Virus genome (UHGV): UHGV-0269933
Direction: 5' to 3' (one strand)
Length of the DNA: 13,616 nucleotides
Source: a virus
Positions 2,002 through 11,022 of this stretch are shown piece after piece. The notes beneath the pieces were generated by a model that made no database searches, was not told the DNA's origin, and saw only the letters and a program-made list of their open reading frames with translations. The translations under genes and the position numbers were made by a program. The first letter of the stretch is position 1. Every line of letters begins with the position of its first letter.

Positions 2002-2161
2002 CATTTCCTTTCTTTTTAGATGGTGTTTTCATTAAAAACATATAGTTACATCGAAGAAGAACAGAAACGGCAAATCGCAGAAAATTTTCATAAATAGCAA
2101 GAATCTGCGAGGTCGCCGCCCCGTAGCAGGCCGAATTGCCCGAAAGGACCCGCGCCGAAAT

Positions 2162-3052: not shown

Positions 3053-4093
3053 TTAGGCCACGCGAACGGTGACAAAACGGTTGATACGGGCCGGGATAGG
3101 CTGCGGTGCGGAGTGGGTCTGAACGTACTCAATAGCTGGGTCGCCAGGAACAATGTAGTTCTTTGGCGCCAGCTCAGCTTTGGTAATACCCATACGGATG
3201 AGCTCTGGATCCTGAATTCCGCCGTAGGCCACAATGCCCTGCAGGGCGGTGTTTCCCAGCACCATCAAATCAGGATCGAGGAAGTGCTTTTCGGTGCCGT
3301 CTTCGTCGGTATAGCGACCGCTATAAACCACAATAGCCACATCGCCCATATAGCCTTTAAAGCTCACTGAATCGCCCAGGTCTTTAAGTGCTGTTTCAAG
3401 CTGTGCGTTGGAGCCGCGGCGCGTGTCGAGTACATCTTTAATCGCTTTGAAAGAACGATATTTTTTCCAGACGTTCCCGCCCATAATGATGATATTGGTT
3501 ACGCCTTCACTCAGCTCTGAATAGGTTTCAATATCGTCATTTGGATCAAACGTCGTTTTATCTTTACCTGACCAGGCAGCGCCACCAGCCTGAGTGATTA
3601 TATTCTGGGATTTGATATTCCAGTCCAGCTCATAACGCTCGATCCCTTCCCCCTCAATAATATTTTTCCCGGTAGTTACAGCCTGAACAGCCAGCCATTC
3701 AATACGCGCACGAATAGCAATAGACTGTTTGAGGATTGACTGTTTTACCTTGATATTGCGGGTATCAAGCGTGCTGTATTGATCAGGAGTAACACCAGCA
3801 GGACGAACAGCCAGTTTGTTAGGGTCAATGTTGCTCTTTGGTTTCATGTAGCCAGGACGGATAGACTTGGACTCATATCCCTCATCACGCGCCACCTTAC
3901 TACCCACCATAGGCGAACAGAACGCCGCGATTGGAATATTTGGGTCGTCGATAGTGTCCAGGATGATATCGCGCGTTTCAAAAGTAACTGCGCGGGTAAA
4001 GAATAAATCAGTGAACAGGGTTTTTAGTTGCTTCTGAATATCCTCAGCGCTAACAACCCGAACCAGCGCCGCAGGTGAATATAAATCTGGCAT
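3053..4093 (-). CDS. Major capsid protein, lambda gpE-like
   Basis: 346 aa, full-length collinear similarity to lambda gpE (341 aa): PGYMKPK..., ITQAGGAAWSGKDKTTFDPNDDIETY..., FRSFKAIKDVLDTRRGSNAQLETALKDLG...YMGDVAIVVYSG...MVLGNT...YGGIQD...GDPA... SD GAGG upstream of ATG. Confidence 0.9.
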   Translation of the reverse strand: MPDLYSPAALVRVVSAEDIQKQLKTLFTDLFFTRAVTFETRDIILDTIDDPNIPIAAFCSPMVGSKVARDEGYESKSIRPGYMKPKSNIDPNKLAVRPAGVTPDQYSTLDTRNIKVKQSILKQSIAIRARIEWLAVQAVTTGKNIIEGEGIERYELDWNIKSQNIITQAGGAAWSGKDKTTFDPNDDIETYSELSEGVTNIIIMGGNVWKKYRSFKAIKDVLDTRRGSNAQLETALKDLGDSVSFKGYMGDVAIVVYSGRYTDEDGTEKHFLDPDLMVLGNTALQGIVAYGGIQDPELIRMGITKAELAPKNYIVPGDPAIEYVQTHSAPQPIPARINRFVTVRVA

Positions 4094-4366: not shown

Positions 4367-4646
4367 GGTGAAAATCACCCTACCCACAGCTTTAAAATTA
4401 AAAAATATCCTTTTAAGTGTTCACCCGTTCACCTTTGCGAATTTCTTAATTAAATTCATGTAGTTATAGGGTGAATACTACTCTTTCAGGTATTCACTAG
4501 TGTTCACCCTACCCTTCACCCTTTAGGGCAAAAAACAATCAAAAGGTGAACAGGTGAATACTTGGTGAATACTTAATAAATAAGTGTCCACCCCTTAACA
4601 CTCTGTTATTAATAGAATTTTAAACAGGGTGAATACTGGTGAACAC
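4367..4646. repeat. Iteron cluster of P4 ori/crr type (TGTTCACC / GTATTCACC), ~12 copies in both orientations
   Basis: TGTTCACC at 4418, 4426, 4501; GGTGAACA/GGTGAATAC at 4470, 4545, 4553, 4564, 4628, 4638; variants at 4490, 4513, 4585; GGTGAAAATCACC palindrome at 4367. Matches the P4 type I iteron motif bound by alpha (recalled). Confidence 0.7.
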
Positions 4647-4659
4647 TTTATCTATAACT

Positions 4660-5361
4660 TTACTCTACCCCTTCATTCTCAGTAGTGATTGCACATGATG
4701 GCATCCAGTCGCCAGAATCATCATGCAGGGTTACGTTAGAGCGTATGCCATGTTTGGTTTTCCGCTTCTGGTATTCCTTCCCATACTCAACCATTGCGCC
4801 AGGCATATCTGTACCGAACCGCATCAGTGAGACAGGCTTACTCAGGCCATTGGCTCTCATGTATGCCAGATAGGCGTGATACAGGTACTTGCGCGGGCTG
4901 AATGGCACTATCTCGGCATTACCGATAAACATCCCGTCACACACTACCGACGCCATCAGGTAGCCGCAGAAGTCCACCAGCGAATCACCTTCACGCTTGA
5001 TCGCCAGAGCCTCCTCTGATTTCTGCTGCTCATACAATAACCGTCTGGCTTCGTCCTGGTCTGCAAAACGTGTAAGCAGATGGCGGATAACTACAGCCAG
5101 TTCCCCTTCTATTTTCTCTGCCAGCATCGAGTCTCGCTCGTTTTCTGGTACAACCTCCGAGAAATTGAAAATAACCCGGCGCCGCGAAATCCCCCCGCTA
5201 CGGTCGCTGAATGTCATAGCATTGTTGTTTACCGCCAGCACCACCGCCGGAATACGGGTTGAATATGGTGCTTTATGTTTAGGATCGATAGACACCTTGT
5301 CACCACCAGTTATGGCCTTAATACCTGCACCATCGCCAGCGTACCGGGTCATATCAGGCAT
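4660..5361 (-). CDS. P4 alpha-type primase/helicase C-terminal (iteron-binding) domain homolog, stand-alone/truncated
   Basis: 233 aa beginning near the SF3-helicase arginine-finger region (AVVLAVNNNAMTFSDRSGGISRRRVIFNF). No Walker A/B or primase domain. Located immediately upstream of the TGTTCACC iterons, as the alpha 3' end is in P4. Confidence 0.55.
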   Translation of the reverse strand: MPDMTRYAGDGAGIKAITGGDKVSIDPKHKAPYSTRIPAVVLAVNNNAMTFSDRSGGISRRRVIFNFSEVVPENERDSMLAEKIEGELAVVIRHLLTRFADQDEARRLLYEQQKSEEALAIKREGDSLVDFCGYLMASVVCDGMFIGNAEIVPFSPRKYLYHAYLAYMRANGLSKPVSLMRFGTDMPGAMVEYGKEYQKRKTKHGIRSNVTLHDDSGDWMPSCAITTENEGVE

Positions 5362-5427
5362 AATGATCGTAATGTTCCTTTATTTCATGAATCGTAATAG
5401 GCATAAATTCTCCTTGTTTGTCTAACC

Positions 5428-5620
5428 TGCCGCATTTAGTGCCGCGTTTAGCAATGCCGCACTTAGCGCCGCACCAGTTTTCTCAAAAAATTACGCAAAC
5501 CCAGTAATGACGTGGGTTTCAGTGAAATGCCGCACTTAGCGCGTGTATACAGGGACTAAGTGCGGCATTTGGTCATAAAACATACTAAATGCCGCACATG
5601 CCGCACTTACCGCCGCATTT
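5428..5620. repeat. Cluster of >=5 copies of ATGCCGCACTTAGCGC-like repeats including a 15-bp perfect inverted repeat
   Basis: Copies at ~5428, 5455, 5527, 5554 (inverted), 5588-5620. AAATGCCGCACTTAG-N16-CTAAGTGCGGCATTT at 5526..5571. Hairpin aaaccca/tgggttt at 5497..5519. Confidence 0.6.
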
Positions 5621-6983
5621 ACTCGACTGTTACCGGGTAAAGGTTCTCACCCTCGATGCGAATAATTTGCTCACTCTCCAGCTTGTCCAGCCAGCGCGGG
5701 AATGACTTTCTCACTTTGTCTGAGCCCAGCGTTGCACGCAGATCGTCTTTAATGACGGAGATAGTGCATGGCTCCCCCTTAGCTGTTCGGCTGCGAACTG
5801 CCTGCCATAGTGCATGATGGTTATCGCTAAGACGGGATACATGGGCCAGTTCAGGCTCAACCTCTTTAGCCTCTCTCGGCTGATCGTGCACAACCAGAGA
5901 GCAAACAAGCTCGCCATCTTCATCGGTGTAAAGCTCTGCCGTTCTCAGGTCATACGCTTTACGCTCTGGCTCCTCCGCGTCTTTCATCTTGGTACAGGTC
6001 AGAATAAGCGCTTTTCCATCCCCTTCACGCTTAACGTTAAATTCAGTATCAAGCGCAGCGCGGAAAGCACTGGAACCGCGAGCGCCTTTCCCTTCATCTT
6101 TGCCGGAGTGGTGAACTACCAGCACCGTTGCACCCGTTTTCTGTTTGATAACGTCACACCCTTCAATAAATGCCCCCATATCACGAGCATCGTTCTCGTC
6201 GTTACCGCCAAAACAACGGGCCAGCGTATCGATCACCACCATGCGAACCGGCACACCACATTCGGCTTCAATCTGCCTGGCAGCCAGAAGAACTTCTGTA
6301 ACCTCTGACTCACGCACCGGGAACACCGGACGATTGACCAGCCAGAGGTTGTCTGCCTGTATGCCATGCACCTGTTCCCATGCCCGTATACGCCGGGGAA
6401 CACCTACACCACCCTCGCCAACCACATACAGCACCGCGCCGGGAGTGACCTTCTTCCCCGCCCATGGCAGACCAGCAGCGATATGACAGGCCCACGACAC
6501 GGCAAGAAAACTCTTATACGAACCGCTGGGGCCGTAAATGCTGCACAGTGATTGCGCTGGCAGAAAGTGTTTAAGGATATAGTCCTGACGGATATCAAAG
6601 CCCTCAGAACCGCGAGAGAGAGGCAGCTTTGTCCTGAACTTTGCACCAGCATCAGGGAATACGCGGTGAATGCGCTGCACGTCAGACAGCATGGCATTCA
6701 TTTCCCCTTCGCCTATCTCTTCCACCAGCACAGAACGCCGCGCGGTAATCATATGTTTGCGGTCGGTATCGAGATACCCGGCATCACAAAGCTCCTCATA
6801 CGGCATTGCTGCTATCTGGTTGAGGCGAGCCACCAGCTTTCCGTAACGGGTAGTGGGGTCCTTATGCTGGTGGAGAGCTTTATCCAAATCGCTGCGACTG
6901 TACTGCTTGCCATGCGCCCACAGATACGAACAGGTGAACAAGGCATCCGATACGGTTTCTACAGCTGTCAGTTGTACCGTCAT
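5619..6983 (-). CDS. RepA-like replicative helicase / AAA_25 (RecA-fold) ATPase with N- and C-terminal accessory domains
   Basis: 454 aa; Walker A GPSGSYKS, Walker B-like VVIDTLARCF, HHSGKDEGKGARGSSA motif typical of RSF1010 RepA/DnaB-like helicases. ATGA overlap with upstream gene. Confidence 0.75.
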   Translation of the reverse strand: MTVQLTAVETVSDALFTCSYLWAHGKQYSRSDLDKALHQHKDPTTRYGKLVARLNQIAAMPYEELCDAGYLDTDRKHMITARRSVLVEEIGEGEMNAMLSDVQRIHRVFPDAGAKFRTKLPLSRGSEGFDIRQDYILKHFLPAQSLCSIYGPSGSYKSFLAVSWACHIAAGLPWAGKKVTPGAVLYVVGEGGVGVPRRIRAWEQVHGIQADNLWLVNRPVFPVRESEVTEVLLAARQIEAECGVPVRMVVIDTLARCFGGNDENDARDMGAFIEGCDVIKQKTGATVLVVHHSGKDEGKGARGSSAFRAALDTEFNVKREGDGKALILTCTKMKDAEEPERKAYDLRTAELYTDEDGELVCSLVVHDQPREAKEVEPELAHVSRLSDNHHALWQAVRSRTAKGEPCTISVIKDDLRATLGSDKVRKSFPRWLDKLESEQIIRIEGENLYPVTVE

Positions 6984-7348
6984 TTTGGAATGCCCCCGCT
7001 CATCTGGAATTTGCCGATCAGAGGATGGAACCAGTATGCAGAGCCATATTTGCGCTTAGCACTGCGCAGCACCAACCGTGCCGCTTCCCTGAACTTTTCA
7101 TCAGGTGCAACGAACCCGCCTGATTTCAGTTTAACCAGCATCACCCCTGTGTTTTTCGCCAGCTCCTCAGCCTTTTTGGTTGAGATACCGTATTCAGCAG
7201 CCAGTGTTGCTACTGGCGTCATACCCGGAGGGATTTCTCCGCCCTGACTATCGGTAAGTGATTTAACCTGAGCCTCAAGGCGCAAGACCTTCTCAACCAG
7301 CAGATCAACGCGGTTAGCCAGTTCGTTAAACTTCACATTGCTGATCAT
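6980..7348 (-). CDS. Hypothetical protein with N-terminal coiled coil and putative HTH
   Basis: 122 aa; TPVATLAAEYGISTKKAEELAK looks HTH-like. ATGA start/stop overlaps on both sides. Confidence 0.55.
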   Translation of the reverse strand: MISNVKFNELANRVDLLVEKVLRLEAQVKSLTDSQGGEIPPGMTPVATLAAEYGISTKKAEELAKNTGVMLVKLKSGGFVAPDEKFREAARLVLRSAKRKYGSAYWFHPLIGKFQMSGGIPK

Positions 7349-7572: not shown

Positions 7573-7750
7573 TGAGCGCTCCCGTTTCATTCTGCTCCAC
7601 CATGCTTGCCGCAAGTTGATCCGATACTCGTCTGGCCAGACTGATAAGGTTTTCACGCTCAACCTGATCAACGTCGTACTCTTCGACAACCATCAACAAC
7701 GCAGCCAGTTCACAGGCTATTGACGCACTTTTATTGGTTAATTCACGCAT
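7565..7750 (-). CDS. Hypothetical small protein (61 aa)
   Basis: Start ATG at 7750 in ATGCGTGA overlap with upstream gene stop. Track ORF 7565..7912 is an upstream extension in another gene's sequence. Confidence 0.5.
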
Positions 7751-8012
7751 GGCGCACCTCCTGAATAGCTGCGCTATCGAACTCCCAGCCACGGCGGGTG
7801 GTGTAATCGAAAAACGCAACGCGACAAGGAGACTGGGCGCGGATTTTGGCAGCGAAAACCAAATCCCAGCCGGGGAATGCAGAGCGGGCTTTATCTTCCG
7901 TATCAGCATCAAAGCGGAGCACTACAGGTGTGCATTTTGGGGTGTGGTCTGGGGTTGCCAGGAATAACCATGTAAATTCCGGGCGAGTTTGGGTATGCTG
8001 TTGATCAGCCAT
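7743..8012 (-). CDS. Hypothetical protein (89 aa), first gene of replication operon
   Basis: Start ATG at 8012 with GGAG SD ([13 protein letters not shown]...). The 318-aa track ORF 7743..8699 upstream of this Met is low-complexity, Cys/Arg/Ser-rich non-coding translation. Confidence 0.55.
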
Positions 8013-8139
8013 AACTGTTACTCCGATTAACGGTTTGGTTAGACGCCCTGGTACTGCTCTAACAGTCCGGGGCGTTGCTTTTTGGTATGCACCTGCCATA
8101 CACTTGATTACCATTTCAAAGTAATCAGGTGTCAACCAA

Positions 8140-8319
8140 ATGTCAACCATAGAAATTAAAGCCAAAGGTAACAAGCAGATCGCATTACGCGTAGAACCAA
8201 ACCTAGAAGAAGGAATTAAACAGGCTCTGGCGCAAGATGGTGACGCTTCTGTATCAGCATGGATAAAGCGAATAATCCGCAAAGAGTTACAGCAGCGAGG
8301 CATTGAGCCGAAAAGCTGA
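8140..8319 (+). CDS. Small ribbon-helix-helix-like DNA-binding protein (59 aa), candidate island regulator/repressor; absent from ORF track
   Basis: ATG 8140 with AGGTG SD 9 nt upstream; stop TGA 8317..8319. KQIALRVEP strand plus two amphipathic helices fits Arc/MetJ/CopG topology. Divergent from the replication operon across a 127-bp region. Confidence 0.5.
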
Positions 8320-8499
8320 TACCCAAAATCTGGGTAACGGTCGAAACTACGGGAATTCTCCGGGGTATGCTGCATTGCAGTACACCCGGCACTCTGTTCC
8401 AGTTCTCCCCAGATTTGGGGAAATGGGGTATGCGCCAATGCCGTACACCCTAAACAGCCCAATTTCTGGGTAGTTTCACGTAACCGCGCCATTGACACA

Positions 8500-8519
8500 G
8501 TTCCTGTAATTACAGGAAC
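8500..8519. promoter_or_regulatory. 20-bp perfect palindrome GTTCCTGTAATTACAGGAAC adjacent to TTGACA; candidate operator
   Basis: Perfect dyad symmetry. TTGACA hexamer at 8492..8497 immediately upstream. Confidence 0.45.
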
Positions 8520-8588
8520 GCTCAGGCTTTGACCACCAGCATTAACCCTGGTATCCTGACTTTGCTTAATTTTTTGGTAGTGACATTG

Positions 8589-8616
8589 GCGGCCCGGCAT
8601 GGCCGCTTTTGTTTTA
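8589..8616 (+). terminator. Rho-independent terminator on + strand
   Basis: gcggcc-cggcat-ggccgc hairpin followed by ttttgtttta; ~270 nt downstream of the RHH gene stop. Confidence 0.55.
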
Positions 8617-8634
8617 TGTGACATTCCCCACCCC

Positions 8635-8844
8635 TCACGCTGCTTTGCTGCGGCTCTGCTGCCATGCTGTGACCTCAGAAAGAAGCCAACCAACGGCACG
8701 ACCTCCCAGCTTACGGCGGGCGGGAAAGCTCCCCTCTTTTTCCATCATGTATCGAGTGGTTCGACAAATACCGGTTAGCTGTCGGCACTCAGCCTCACGG
8801 ATAACTCTTTCTGCTGGCTGCTGGGATTGTTTAATATTGTTCAT
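8635..8844 (-). CDS. alpA: AlpA-family transcriptional regulator (prophage CP4-57-type)
   Basis: 69 aa from MNNIKQ; ...[43 protein letters not shown] is the AlpA HTH signature. The longer 81-aa reading would translate through a hairpin and has no SD. Confidence 0.75.
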
Positions 8845-8880
8845 AAAAAAATGCTCTCGTTCGCTAAGGTTCGAGAGCAT
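8845..8880 (-). terminator. Terminator-like hairpin with 9-bp perfect stem directly abutting the alpA start codon
   Basis: On the - strand, atgctctcg-aaccttagcgaa-cgagagcat followed by ttttttt then ATG of alpA. The 3' arm contains the only SD-like GAGAG. Confidence 0.45.
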
Positions 8881-8959
8881 TGTTATTCAACAAAATTATC
8901 ACCGCGACGGTGAGAAAAAAATTATATTCCTCTAAAGGAGTTACCCTTATTCAGTTATA

Positions 8960-9802
8960 TCAAGATAATTCTTTCCTGATTTTATCTAAAGAATCACTTC
9001 TTATGATTTTATCCAAGAAAGGTTTTACCGTTTGAGCTATGGCAAAGGACTCCTTTTCTCCATCCGGGAACAGGGATACTGCGAGTACGCCAAGAGATAT
9101 TTTGCTGTCGGTAGCGCTTTCCCATGACATCAAATCAATAAGTGGAATTATTCTGTAGTCAATTATTTTCCGTCTGACGCTCTCCCAGTCCCCTGAGACT
9201 GGCTTATCTGGTTCAGGTATTCCGAGTTCTTCGCGCCATTTTGGGAGGAGGTTCGTGAATGCTTCAATCAAAAGATCATCTCTGTTGTTTAAGTCAACAG
9301 TAATCATCACGTTTTCCACAACATCAGAAAGTAAGTTTACTGGCTCGCGCATGATAGCCCAAAACATACCGTTATCTGCTGTAAACAAATCCCCCACCAA
9401 ATCATCGTCAACTACTATTGGCTTTCCTTTCCAGTGACCTTTATCAGCATTGATTTTATTTAAAAATGCCAACTCAAATCTCATTAATGGTTTTATACCA
9501 TCGCCGTAACTTAATTTTAGCAAATCAGGCTGAGTCTTGTACTCGTATTCCTTTTGCTTTTCAAGAAACCATTCTTCTGCTTTGAGTTCCCCGAATGGAT
9601 CACCAAAATTATTGTTAAGCGGGTATTTAGCACCATATTGCAAACCATAGTCAGGGCAGTCTGTATTTTTTATTGCTAAATCATCGCATCGCCAATAGAG
9701 CTGACGAAACAAATCCTTATCAGACATATTTTCAAGGTCATCATATTTTTCCAAGCTGAATGACTTTGGTAAGTCTCTTTTACTGTTAATTTTTTTTGTC
9801 AT
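8960..9802 (-). CDS. Hypothetical protein (280 aa), AT-rich cargo gene translationally coupled to integrase; function unknown
   Basis: ATG overlaps the integrase stop codon (ATGA). Markedly lower GC than neighbours; acidic, Lys/Asp/Glu-rich; no motif recognised. Confidence 0.6.
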   Translation of the reverse strand: MTKKINSKRDLPKSFSLEKYDDLENMSDKDLFRQLYWRCDDLAIKNTDCPDYGLQYGAKYPLNNNFGDPFGELKAEEWFLEKQKEYEYKTQPDLLKLSYGDGIKPLMRFELAFLNKINADKGHWKGKPIVVDDDLVGDLFTADNGMFWAIMREPVNLLSDVVENVMITVDLNNRDDLLIEAFTNLLPKWREELGIPEPDKPVSGDWESVRRKIIDYRIIPLIDLMSWESATDSKISLGVLAVSLFPDGEKESFAIAQTVKPFLDKIIRSDSLDKIRKELS

Positions 9803-11022
9803 CTTGCGACCTCAAGAATAGTAACATTTGAGATATCAGAGGTAATAACCTCTAATCTCTGCATCCATTTATTCAGTGCATCCAGCTTTTCAGGTAAATA
9901 CTGACTGCGGTTATATACGGACATGACACCGCCCAGCGCATGGCCCAGAAGCTGCTCGACAACATGCGGAGCAATTCCCATGTTGTTCAGAGTCGTGGAA
10001 AACGTACGGCGTAGATCGTGAAGCGTCCACGGTTCAGAGTGGCCCAGACGCTTATACAACATCCTTCCCCACTGACTGACAGCTTCCGGTTTCTTTATCT
10101 CTCCAAGCAAAAGCCCTGTGCTTTGGTGCTGCTCTAAGAGCTGTTTGATAAATGGGCGGATATCTACGGGAATAGGACGTAGTATTTTCTCACCACCTTT
10201 GCTGTGCTCTTTAGGTACAGTCCAAACCCAATCACTTAGATCCCATTCGGTTACGCGAGACAATCTCAACTCCTGAGTTCGGCACCCAAACACTACTAGC
10301 AGACGTAGCAGCGAGGAGTAGTAGGGCTTGAATTTCAAGCCTGAACACTCCCGCCATATATCAGCCAGTTCTTGCCGGGTATGTTCCCTGTCCCGTTTAT
10401 TCTGTTTACGTCCAACATCATCAATGGTCAGATCGTCCAGGACATTACTCACCGCGTACCGATGAACACGGCAGAACTTGAGGGCTTGCTTACACATTTG
10501 CAGAAGATAGCCAGCAGCTACAGGAGCCTCATCTCTCACCCTGCTGAAACACTCCAGCCAGTGGCGGGTTTCGCACATAGAGAGGGGAAACGCCCCAATA
10601 TATGGGTAGATATGCTTATTGAGCTGTTCTATATGCTTTTCTACATTAGCCCGTTTATGAGATGCATATTCCCTTATCCAGTATTCAAGTGCCTCTTTTA
10701 CAGTTACCGGCTTAAGTGTTTCCTGTGTGGTGACAGTTAACTGGTGTTTCGGGTTCTTCCCCTCAGCAAGCCAGGCACGACATTGATCTCGCTTTGCCCT
10801 CGCGGCCTTAAGTGAAAGATCGGGATAGTTACCTAACTTCAAACGCTGAGGGGCAGTACTGCGTCCACCAATACGGTATGTAAAATACCAGGTCATTATG
10901 CCTATCTTTGACACCTTTACGCTCAGGCCATCACCATCAGCGTAAAAGCTATCACCGGGGCTTTCCCTCCCAACCATCTTGCGGAGCGATGTATCGCTTA
11001 ACTTGTTCGTTCCACCAGCCAT
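9799..11022 (-). CDS. int: Site-specific tyrosine recombinase, P4-type integrase (Arm-binding N-domain + catalytic domain)
   Basis: 407 aa. N-terminal ...DGDGLSVKVSKIGIMTWYFTYRIGG...LKLGNYPDLSLKAARAKRD arm-binding pattern. C-terminal HDLRRTFST...LGHALGGVMSVYNRSQY catalytic motifs, similar to P4 Int. GAGG SD. Confidence 0.9.
   Translation of the reverse strand: MAGGTNKLSDTSLRKMVGRESPGDSFYADGDGLSVKVSKIGIMTWYFTYRIGGRSTAPQRLKLGNYPDLSLKAARAKRDQCRAWLAEGKNPKHQLTVTTQETLKPVTVKEALEYWIREYASHKRANVEKHIEQLNKHIYPYIGAFPLSMCETRHWLECFSRVRDEAPVAAGYLLQMCKQALKFCRVHRYAVSNVLDDLTIDDVGRKQNKRDREHTRQELADIWRECSGLKFKPYYSSLLRLLVVFGCRTQELRLSRVTEWDLSDWVWTVPKEHSKGGEKILRPIPVDIRPFIKQLLEQHQSTGLLLGEIKKPEAVSQWGRMLYKRLGHSEPWTLHDLRRTFSTTLNNMGIAPHVVEQLLGHALGGVMSVYNRSQYLPEKLDALNKWMQRLEVITSDISNVTILEVAR

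Follow-up and report, generated by a model that had tools for sequence, protein, structure and literature searches.

An alpA-coupled open reading frame facing a predicted antisense RNA in a lambda-cos satellite looks like a variant of the phage P4 immunity switch

Between a small ribbon-helix-helix (RHH) gene and alpA, positions 8320-8634 of UHGV virus genome UHGV-0269933 (13,616 nt, here called the window) form a structured region that a first-pass annotation had described as non-coding, without a convincing open reading frame (ORF). That description proved wrong, as a minus-strand ORF spans the entire region and is stop-free and in frame in relatives. This ORF covers 7743-8699 when read from a GTG and 7743-8624 when read from a conserved ATG, with 8320-8634 as its 5' part, and its final 89 codons are an Icd/Kil-like gene. 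The element is a lambda-cos satellite of the phage-inducible chromosomal island (PICI) type, as judged from its gene content, cosN and iteron clusters, and its packaging site and origins lie outside 8320-8634. The anatomy and conservation of the locus were observed directly, and the regulatory mechanism is proposed by analogy with phage P4. The features at the centre of the analysis are:

8635-8880, minus strand: alpA, a Phage_AlpA family regulator (Pfam PF05930, E 8.6e-16)
8625-8637, minus strand: coupling junction, with the alpA stop TGA (8637-8635), then GGGGTGGGGA, then the long-ORF ATG
7743-8624, minus strand: Eta-like long ORF of 293 codons, ATG at 8624-8622, open from end to end
7743-8012, minus strand: Icd/Kil-like gene of 89 aa nested in the long ORF, preceded by a GGAG Shine-Dalgarno sequence (SD) of its own at 8021-8024 and containing an invariant internal Met
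7920-8000, minus strand: C-rich, G-poor stretch at the icd start, a candidate Rho loading/termination region analogous to P4 timm
8529-8557, plus strand: small RNA promoter, with -35 TTGACC, a 17-nt spacer and a TG-extended -10 TATCCT
8564-8616, plus strand: predicted small RNA of ~53 nt, the 5' end being placed from the promoter
8588-8616, plus strand: intrinsic terminator from a terminator scan, with a 7-bp G+C stem, a 6-nt loop and TTTTGTTTT
8500-8519, no strand: operator-like palindrome GTTCCTGTAATTACAGGAAC, perfect over 20 bp

Approximately 45 related loci were gathered from viral contigs, Escherichia coli records and five species-representative genomes (Kosakonia, Rosenbergiella, Kluyvera, Leclercia and Phytobacter). 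The first-pass annotation had set a lack of motif conservation across related islands as a refuting condition; the 8320-8634 stretch is ~95% conserved between islands that carry unrelated sequence in place of the neighbouring 59-aa RHH gene. In 34 of 35 relatives, no stop interrupts the icd frame over the 167-366 codons that precede the icd ATG, and the distance from this ATG to the plus-strand -35 element is a multiple of three. When stop codons were counted in 33 distinct sequences (489-975 nt, 26 different lengths), the long-ORF frame contained none in 32 of them, compared with averages of 9-15 in the other five frames, and 25 of the 26 region lengths were multiples of three. In the exception, L031, the length from icd to the small RNA unit is 940 nt, and a single shift of frame leaves one minus-strand frame stop-free but out of icd register, which could stem from a true frameshift, from faulty assembly or from a different join.

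Variable sites among close relatives numbered 14, 16 and 19 at codon positions 1, 2 and 3, respectively, without a third-position excess, and this codon-position test detected no amino-acid-level selection on the long ORF's N-terminal portion. When 17 diverse homologs are aligned, the Icd C-terminus is well conserved and the middle is unalignable, with many indels, while the conserved N-terminal motifs (one of 11 residues, letters not shown, and AGGQSLS) are the exact antisense of the plus-strand terminator and -35 element. Because the frame is kept open, changes are spread evenly over the codon positions and the conserved motifs are antisense to plus-strand signals, the alignments indicate that the long-ORF frame is under selection and that its N-terminal protein sequence is not. 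The even spread of changes points to a lack of amino-acid constraint, and suggests a need for translation only indirectly. In the databases, 409 proteins of 250-396 aa match the long ORF (closest full-length match in Enterobacter hormaechei, 94% identity), and no Pfam domain was found in its N-terminal 200 aa. Annotation is inconsistent among records, which variously carry a 70-aa Icd-like gene, one pseudogene or a ~290-aa protein. For example, an incomplete "Icd-like" pseudogene in RefSeq (L074 2650-3099, minus strand) is the upstream part of the long ORF and overlaps a YlcI gene.

Both ends of the long ORF are conserved. Its ATG lies 10 nt past the alpA stop, behind a G-rich SD, and this stop-SD-ATG layout recurs in nearly all relatives, whatever gene lies upstream. 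The ATG is also conserved at a fixed 9 nt beyond the end of the T-run of the plus-strand terminator. At the other end, the 75-aa stretch at 7743-7970 scores 59.5 bits against NCBIfam NF033153 (cutoff 25), residues 217-262 of the whole 293-aa ORF score 64.2 bits, the Icd/Kil-like gene matches PHROG 1743, and residues M205/A206 are invariant in the 17 diverse homologs. C exceeds G by 0.13-0.22 at icd +30..+75 in all 31 distinct loci, within a C>G bubble spanning +15..+90, which makes the stretch a natural candidate for a Rho entry site. Matches somewhere in 7900-8700 were found in 373 of 5426 E. coli genomes, and 7957-8083 was covered by most among the matches listed. This segment (first icd codons, SD and a leader hairpin at 8046-8079) shows DNA-level conservation well beyond this island family; within it, CCGGGCGAGTTTGGGTATGCTG is invariant in three aligned islands and near-invariant in a wider set, with varying flanking codons. 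The segment is possibly a common target site for Rho or an RNA.

Facing the start of the long ORF is the predicted small RNA unit. Its promoter was the only sigma-70 match within 7600-9000 in a promoter scan, and a -10 hexamer with T1, A2 and T6 stands at a fixed 17-nt offset in 45 of 45 loci, where the spacer sequence varies (the -35 was itself part of the locus search pattern). The TTGACA at 8492, listed by the first-pass annotation, is specific to the window and reads TGGCGC in most relatives; the conserved promoter is instead formed by TTGACC at 8529-8534 and TATCCT at 8552-8557. The plus-strand terminator was recovered as described, with its stem at 8588-8607 and its T-run extending to 8616. 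All cells of its helix are paired (100%), compensatory changes occur at 3 of 7 pairs, and every wobble cell (nine in total) reads G.U on the plus strand and would read C.A on the other. Hence, the plus-strand small RNA ending at 8588-8616 that the first-pass annotation suggested is very likely, given a promoter and terminator conserved in ~45 loci and covariation in the terminator, although its predicted length is ~53 nt rather than 100-300 nt. The CCCA...TGGG and GGGGTATGC motifs fall outside the predicted RNA, which has another promoter.

Complementarity between the predicted RNA and nt +9..+61 (codons 3-21) of the long ORF is perfect. The RNA body is the most variable segment of the region, with at least eight alleles, including a ~100-nt form, between the conserved promoter and terminator, and its indels are all of 6 or 48 nt (multiples of three). 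Searches of Rfam families with the small RNA and the window returned nothing relevant at the gathering score or at E<=10, and six signature sequences of the region had no occurrence in the literature searched. Two other pairing partners were considered and rejected. Pairing in trans with the icd leader or translation initiation region averaged -16.7 kcal/mol for a locus's own pairs, -17.3 for cross pairs and -17.6 for shuffled pairs, without co-variation. Pairing with the start of the RHH gene (8564-8590 against 8136-8162) gave an interrupted duplex of ~24 bp at -20.7 kcal/mol, within the window background; the same RHH allele occurs with different RNA alleles, and since the duplex is not allele-linked in relatives, it is probably due to chance.

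The 20-bp palindrome at 8500-8519, also noted at first pass, is present and perfect. Its centre lies ~54.5 bp upstream of the predicted small RNA start, at a fixed distance upstream of the -35, and its consensus yTCCTGTAAT.ACAGGAr is found in nearly all relatives, with one site per element. The Y/R position varies independently in each half, so that TT, TC, CT and CC all occur, some of them mismatching on either RNA strand. Because the halves vary as DNA half-sites do, we regard 8500-8519 as a putative operator, a DNA site rather than an RNA stem. The palindrome does not follow the AlpA or RHH allele, and when compared by eye with consensus sequences for LexA, CRP, IHF and sigma-54, it fitted none of them.

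The layout as a whole looks like an undescribed variant of the phage P4 immunity switch. [quoted passage not shown] Analysed with the same tools as the window, the 199-codon P4 eta starts at the stop of vis (an AlpA homolog) and ends as the 65-aa kil, and P4 Kil and the long-ORF C-terminus both score above the NF033153 cutoff. Forti et al. 1999 are said to have found the P4 terminator to be Rho-dependent and to overlap kil. Both loci run from an alpA/vis homolog through a coupled long ORF and a C-terminal Icd-family Kil to replication genes; in both, the long ORF crosses immunity determinants and the kil/icd start is C-rich. The window differs in having no CI (Rfam C4) or seqA (isrK) element, in placing its regulators on the opposite strand (the predicted ~53-nt cis-antisense RNA at the first codons and an Arc-like repressor gene) and in having a variable hairpin array. 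Moreover, the P4 vis-promoter transcript is immunity-insensitive, whereas the window RNA is placed to control that very transcript. Searches with C4 (RF01695) and isrK (RF01394) matched nothing in the window at the gathering score or at E<=10 and were negative in 11 array-bearing relatives; P4 scored 74.9 and 60.8 bits, respectively. Residues 22-146 of P4 Eta (L003 8168-8767, minus strand) match Phage_ASH PF10554, and the window ORF does not; the PF10554 stretch is the translation of seqA and the CI RNA gene, so conservation of this family may be partly at the RNA level. One E. coli island, whose integration site is a prophage terminase gene, carries a bona fide C4 RNA in a second Icd-like ORF (L063 2590-2677, minus strand) and a diverged palindrome-promoter-terminator unit (L063 3735-3880, plus strand); hence, both systems can coexist.

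Other known systems share parts of this design. As in P1/P7 immI (c4-icd-ant), a small RNA is placed to control, via translation, an operon opening with an Icd-family gene, and antirepressor-type genes (KilAC, BRO-N) adjoin the unit in some relatives. However, P1/P7 c4 is transcribed together with its target and works in trans through short a'/b' sites, whereas the window RNA is on the opposite strand, is fully complementary to its target and has no C4 model match. Like IS10 RNA-OUT, Sok (hok/mok), lambda OOP and P22 sar, the predicted RNA is short and opposite-strand, is preceded by a constitutive-looking promoter of its own and has a single-stranded recognition part at its 5' end and a hairpin as terminator. 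As with Sok and mok, its direct target would be an overlapping frame that lies upstream and must be translated for downstream genes to be expressed. It has no sequence or Rfam relationship to these RNAs, overlaps its target from ~+9 without the SD or AUG, and would have transcription termination of a whole operon as its output. The Stl/Rpr repressors of Gram-positive PICIs are likewise small DNA-binding proteins encoded divergently from the replication operon; the window protein is instead of the RHH type (Arc/YlcI-like), its gene is antisense inside a probably translated ORF, and islands exchange this gene but retain the RNA unit.

We lean towards the reading that 8320-8634 is the 5' part of a P4-eta-like translated spacer ORF in a lambda-cos satellite, equipped with an antisense-RNA switch. 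AlpA of Gram-negative PICIs activates the promoter of alpA and the genes that follow it, and no repressor has been identified (PMC6092414). On the P4 analogy, transcripts from the alpA promoter would reach the icd-replication operon only if alpA-coupled ribosomes translate the spacer ORF, and this translation would cover the C-rich Rho entry region at the icd start. A constitutive antisense RNA would pair in the first ORF codons and block translation and/or trigger cleavage, and the small RNA promoter would add convergent-transcription interference or polymerase collision. With translation blocked and transcription interfered with, basal alpA read-through would be terminated and the island would be quiescent, until a helper-induced burst of alpA transcription outruns the antisense RNA. 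The island-specificity of immunity would lie in the hypervariable RNA body. RNA-based immunity, as the first-pass annotation proposed, is a plausible role, but not in the seqA/B/C form of P4 CI/C4, which fails the Rfam test and whose third motif is missing in many relatives.

Several points weigh against the antisense-switch reading. Many of the loci are akin, so that independent observations are fewer than the locus count. Both the small RNA and long-ORF translation are predictions from sequence, Rho dependence is read from base composition, and the scan found no consensus minus-strand promoter inside the long ORF equivalent to P4 PLE. The RNA overlap begins at ~+9 and leaves the SD and AUG uncovered, and a translational block would hence rely on a "five-codon window" rule, as Bouvier et al. 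2008 reportedly showed that pairing within the first five codons blocks initiation. In the hairpin array, the expressed strand is not settled by either a mismatch census (14 vs 17, below) or folding scores, which are similar on both strands. The array is also absent from L002, L023 and L063, which keep the RNA unit; hence, it is not essential to the core switch. The array and the plus-strand genes embedded in the long ORF comprise:

8319-8497, no strand: modular hairpin array, recognised by repeats and pairing-preserving arm changes
8319-8339: array unit GATACCCA..TGGGTAAC
8361-8388 and 8425-8450: array units GGGGTATGC-stem-GTACACCC
8403-8424: array unit TCTCCCCA..TGGGGAAAT
8455-8475: array unit
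8140-8319, plus strand: Arc/YlcI-like RHH gene, antisense inside the long ORF
8100-8132, no strand: inverted repeat ACACTTGATTAC / GTAATCAGGTGT, a possible RHH operator

The repeats first seen in this region are all present: the CCCA...TGGG direct repeats (8322-8336 and 8458-8472, 87% identical), an inverted copy at 8408-8420 (92% complementary to 8322-8334) and the 26-nt GGGGTATGC...GTACACCC repeats (8362-8387 and 8425-8450, 85%). Together with the palindrome and terminator, they lie at, or at most 1 nt from, the places given by the first-pass annotation. GGTATGC has four plus-strand copies, all in 7992-8427 (~0.8 expected for the whole window). The array begins at the stop codon of whichever plus-strand gene precedes it and has 0 to ~10 units per island. 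Its units fall into recognisable types, within which arm changes keep pairing (ACTCCC-CCC/GGG-, -TCC/GGA-, -ACC/GGT-), and its motifs occur almost only at this location. On each strand, the 8320-8634 region is predicted to fold more stably than its dinucleotide-shuffled versions (z -3.3 and -3.7), and arrays are far more stable than shuffled sequences (mean z -4.7 on the plus strand and -4.2 on the minus strand). A strand census of stem mismatches (G.U vs A.C) gave 14 vs 17, without strand bias. The covariation analysis across homologs that had been called for yielded compensatory pairs in the terminator, but RNAalifold found no double changes in the array of close relatives. The third motif and the TTGACA at 8492 sit in an insertion flanked by GCGCCAATG repeats, and many relatives are without this insertion. 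Arrays are present with both RepA-type and D5-type replicases, with no link to replicase type.

The idea of an operator array has fared unevenly: the 20-bp palindrome behaves like a protein operator, but the hairpin motifs vary without regard to the RHH or AlpA allele, so that they are unlikely to be operators for those two proteins. The long-ORF mRNA and the 3' untranslated region of the RHH mRNA, which are antisense to each other, would both carry the hairpins, and an RNA role is therefore favoured. This role, which we hold loosely, could be in folding, in protection from Rho or RNases, or in loop-loop contact between the two complementary transcripts. The role of the array is the least certain part of the model.

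The RHH ORF itself matches NCBIfam YlcI_YnfO_N NF041551 below the cutoff of 30 (20 bits, E 5e-4) and the Arc-like repressor PHROG 228 (E 4e-5). Its homologs are annotated as YlcI/YnfO in RefSeq relatives, and unrelated small genes replace it in other islands. The inverted repeat at 8100-8132 overlaps a weak minus-strand promoter candidate that was seen by eye and not in the scan (TTGACA 8135-8130, 17 nt, GGTAAT 8112-8107), and islands with the other RHH type have allele-specific repeats at its place. Some islands have extra small plus-strand genes between the RHH gene and the array (L001 5554-5808, L006 4033-4272, L011 6401-6562 and L063 ~3560-3720). These include an 84-aa Cys-rich ORF, a 79-aa ORF and a lipoprotein-like ORF of ~50 aa, all antisense in the long ORF, whose frame is unbroken.

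The remaining annotated genes of the satellite, which is inserted at a site adjoining yhdJ/acrS that is shared with several E. coli genomes, are:

9799-11022, minus strand: integrase
in the window, minus strand: DUF6387 protein gene
6980-7348, minus strand: 122-aa protein of PHROG 6610 (unknown function), with a helix-turn-helix-like stretch
5619-6983, minus strand: RepA-type helicase
4660-5361, minus strand: D5-like primase ORF (233 aa), covering PHROG profile positions 419-667 of 1064
in the window, minus strand: major capsid protein gene, besides small ORFs

The D5-like ORF looks like a truncated remnant, making the island a mosaic in which one replicase is complete and the other partial. 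Each replicase gene is directly followed downstream by an iteron cluster: ATGCCGCACTTAGCGC repeats in both orientations at 5425-5617, after the RepA-type helicase gene, and P4-type GGTGAATA/TGTTCACC repeats in DNA of 30-40% G+C at 4415-4648, after the D5-like fragment. These are probably two origins, derived from two replication modules. A perfect lambda cosN, GGGCGGCGACCT, at 2110-2121 (minus strand) is the sole cosN match and implies a lambdoid cos helper for the satellite. The 122-aa protein at 6980-7348 is the most conserved small protein across islands (86-100% identity) and is a candidate binder of the palindrome at 8500-8519. The Rfam int-alpA RNA motif (RF02996) was found in relative L002 between the integrase and DUF6387 genes (7095-7161, minus strand); in the window, it had no match at the gathering score.

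Alternative explanations can be weighed against these observations. The suggestion that 8320-8634 is a packaging site was rejected, and we give a cos/pac site or a replication origin here a negligible chance: the region is conserved and repeat-rich, with some iteron-like units, but the cosN and iterons lie elsewhere, arrays accompany both replicase types, and 8320-8520 has no AT-rich segment (the region has 48-57% G+C). It is also very improbable that the long ORF encodes a functional multi-repeat protein, with the hairpins a by-product of peptide motifs (GCTA.xHTP, P.xWG). Gene callers do predict the ORF, NCBI names its 250-396-aa versions "Icd-like protein", and the repeated motifs resemble the Icd N-terminus (QHT..PEF.W). 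Selection for a protein nonetheless sits poorly with the even codon-position changes, the unalignable, indel-rich middle, the coincidence of conserved stretches with plus-strand transcription signals and the lack of a Pfam domain outside the Icd part, and stems of 10-11 bp with pairing-preserving changes would be unexpected from peptide repeats. A trans-acting immunity RNA of the P4 CI or P1 c4 type appears quite improbable as well. Here, a seqB-like middle (CCCAGATTTGGGG) in a processed stable RNA would pair with flanking CCCA..TCTGGG (seqA/seqC-like) on the minus-strand leader, causing premature termination upstream of icd. The direct-inverted-direct layout (12/13 and 10/13 complementarity), a fourth related segment in the first icd codons (7985-7996 vs 8319-8330) and a downstream Icd-like gene, as in P1 and P4, would suit such a mechanism. 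Yet models that find both RNAs in P4 match neither the window nor 11 array-bearing relatives, and in many relatives the third motif is absent, as is half of the second 26-mer. The motifs are each hairpins in their own right, with a centre that differs in most loci (ATATC vs GATTT), uncompensated, and a plus-strand gene stands between the motifs and icd.

Two further explanations, each rather unlikely in our judgement, concern the array and the RNA unit separately. The hairpin motifs could be double-stranded DNA operators for a satellite, host or helper protein controlling the divergent and convergent promoters. They are palindromes with A/T-rich centres, their stem mismatches lack strand bias, the neighbouring 20-bp palindrome behaves as a DNA site, and the TCTCCC..GGGAGA unit, which presumably resembles lambdoid origin iterons, keeps its outer arms across loci. 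However, the arms within one array are unrelated (CTCA/TGAG, GCGCC/GGCGC, TTGCA/TGCAA, CCCC/GGGG) and their changes keep pairing, so that no single protein could read all units, and the make-up of arrays does not depend on which RHH, AlpA or replicase allele is present. The promoter-terminator unit could instead be chiefly an insulator, with a terminator that stops RHH transcription before it runs antisense into alpA, a strong promoter that blocks alpA read-through by polymerase collision, and pairing that is irrelevant. Convergent geometry, a terminator that works on the plus strand only and the lack of any other terminator between the RHH gene and 8588 in the scan all fit this explanation, which leaves unaccounted for an RNA body that is hypervariable yet keeps the frame, as well as the fixed 9-nt distance from the unit to the ORF start. 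The spacer ORF with an antisense-RNA switch remains the reading towards which we lean.

More tentatively, and as a possibility that falls short of probable, a family of Gram-negative PICIs may be silenced by an undescribed RNA switch. A hypervariable cis-antisense RNA of ~50 nt would block a spacer ORF that is translated only to let alpA-promoter transcription escape Rho, the ORF would tolerate antisense cargo genes and hairpin arrays as long as they bring no antisense stops, and the RNA body would define heteroimmunity groups. The quiescence of Gram-negative PICIs is an open question, for which the locus gives testable candidates in the antisense RNA at an alpA-coupled ORF and the embedded Arc-like repressor, the former being a small RNA gene that belongs to no Rfam family. 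It would carry the P4 eta idea, in which an ORF is under selection solely to be translated, over to hundreds of enterobacterial islands, and it illustrates an unusual coding constraint, in which the genes, promoters, terminators and hairpins of one strand evolve under the "no stop codon" rule of the other.

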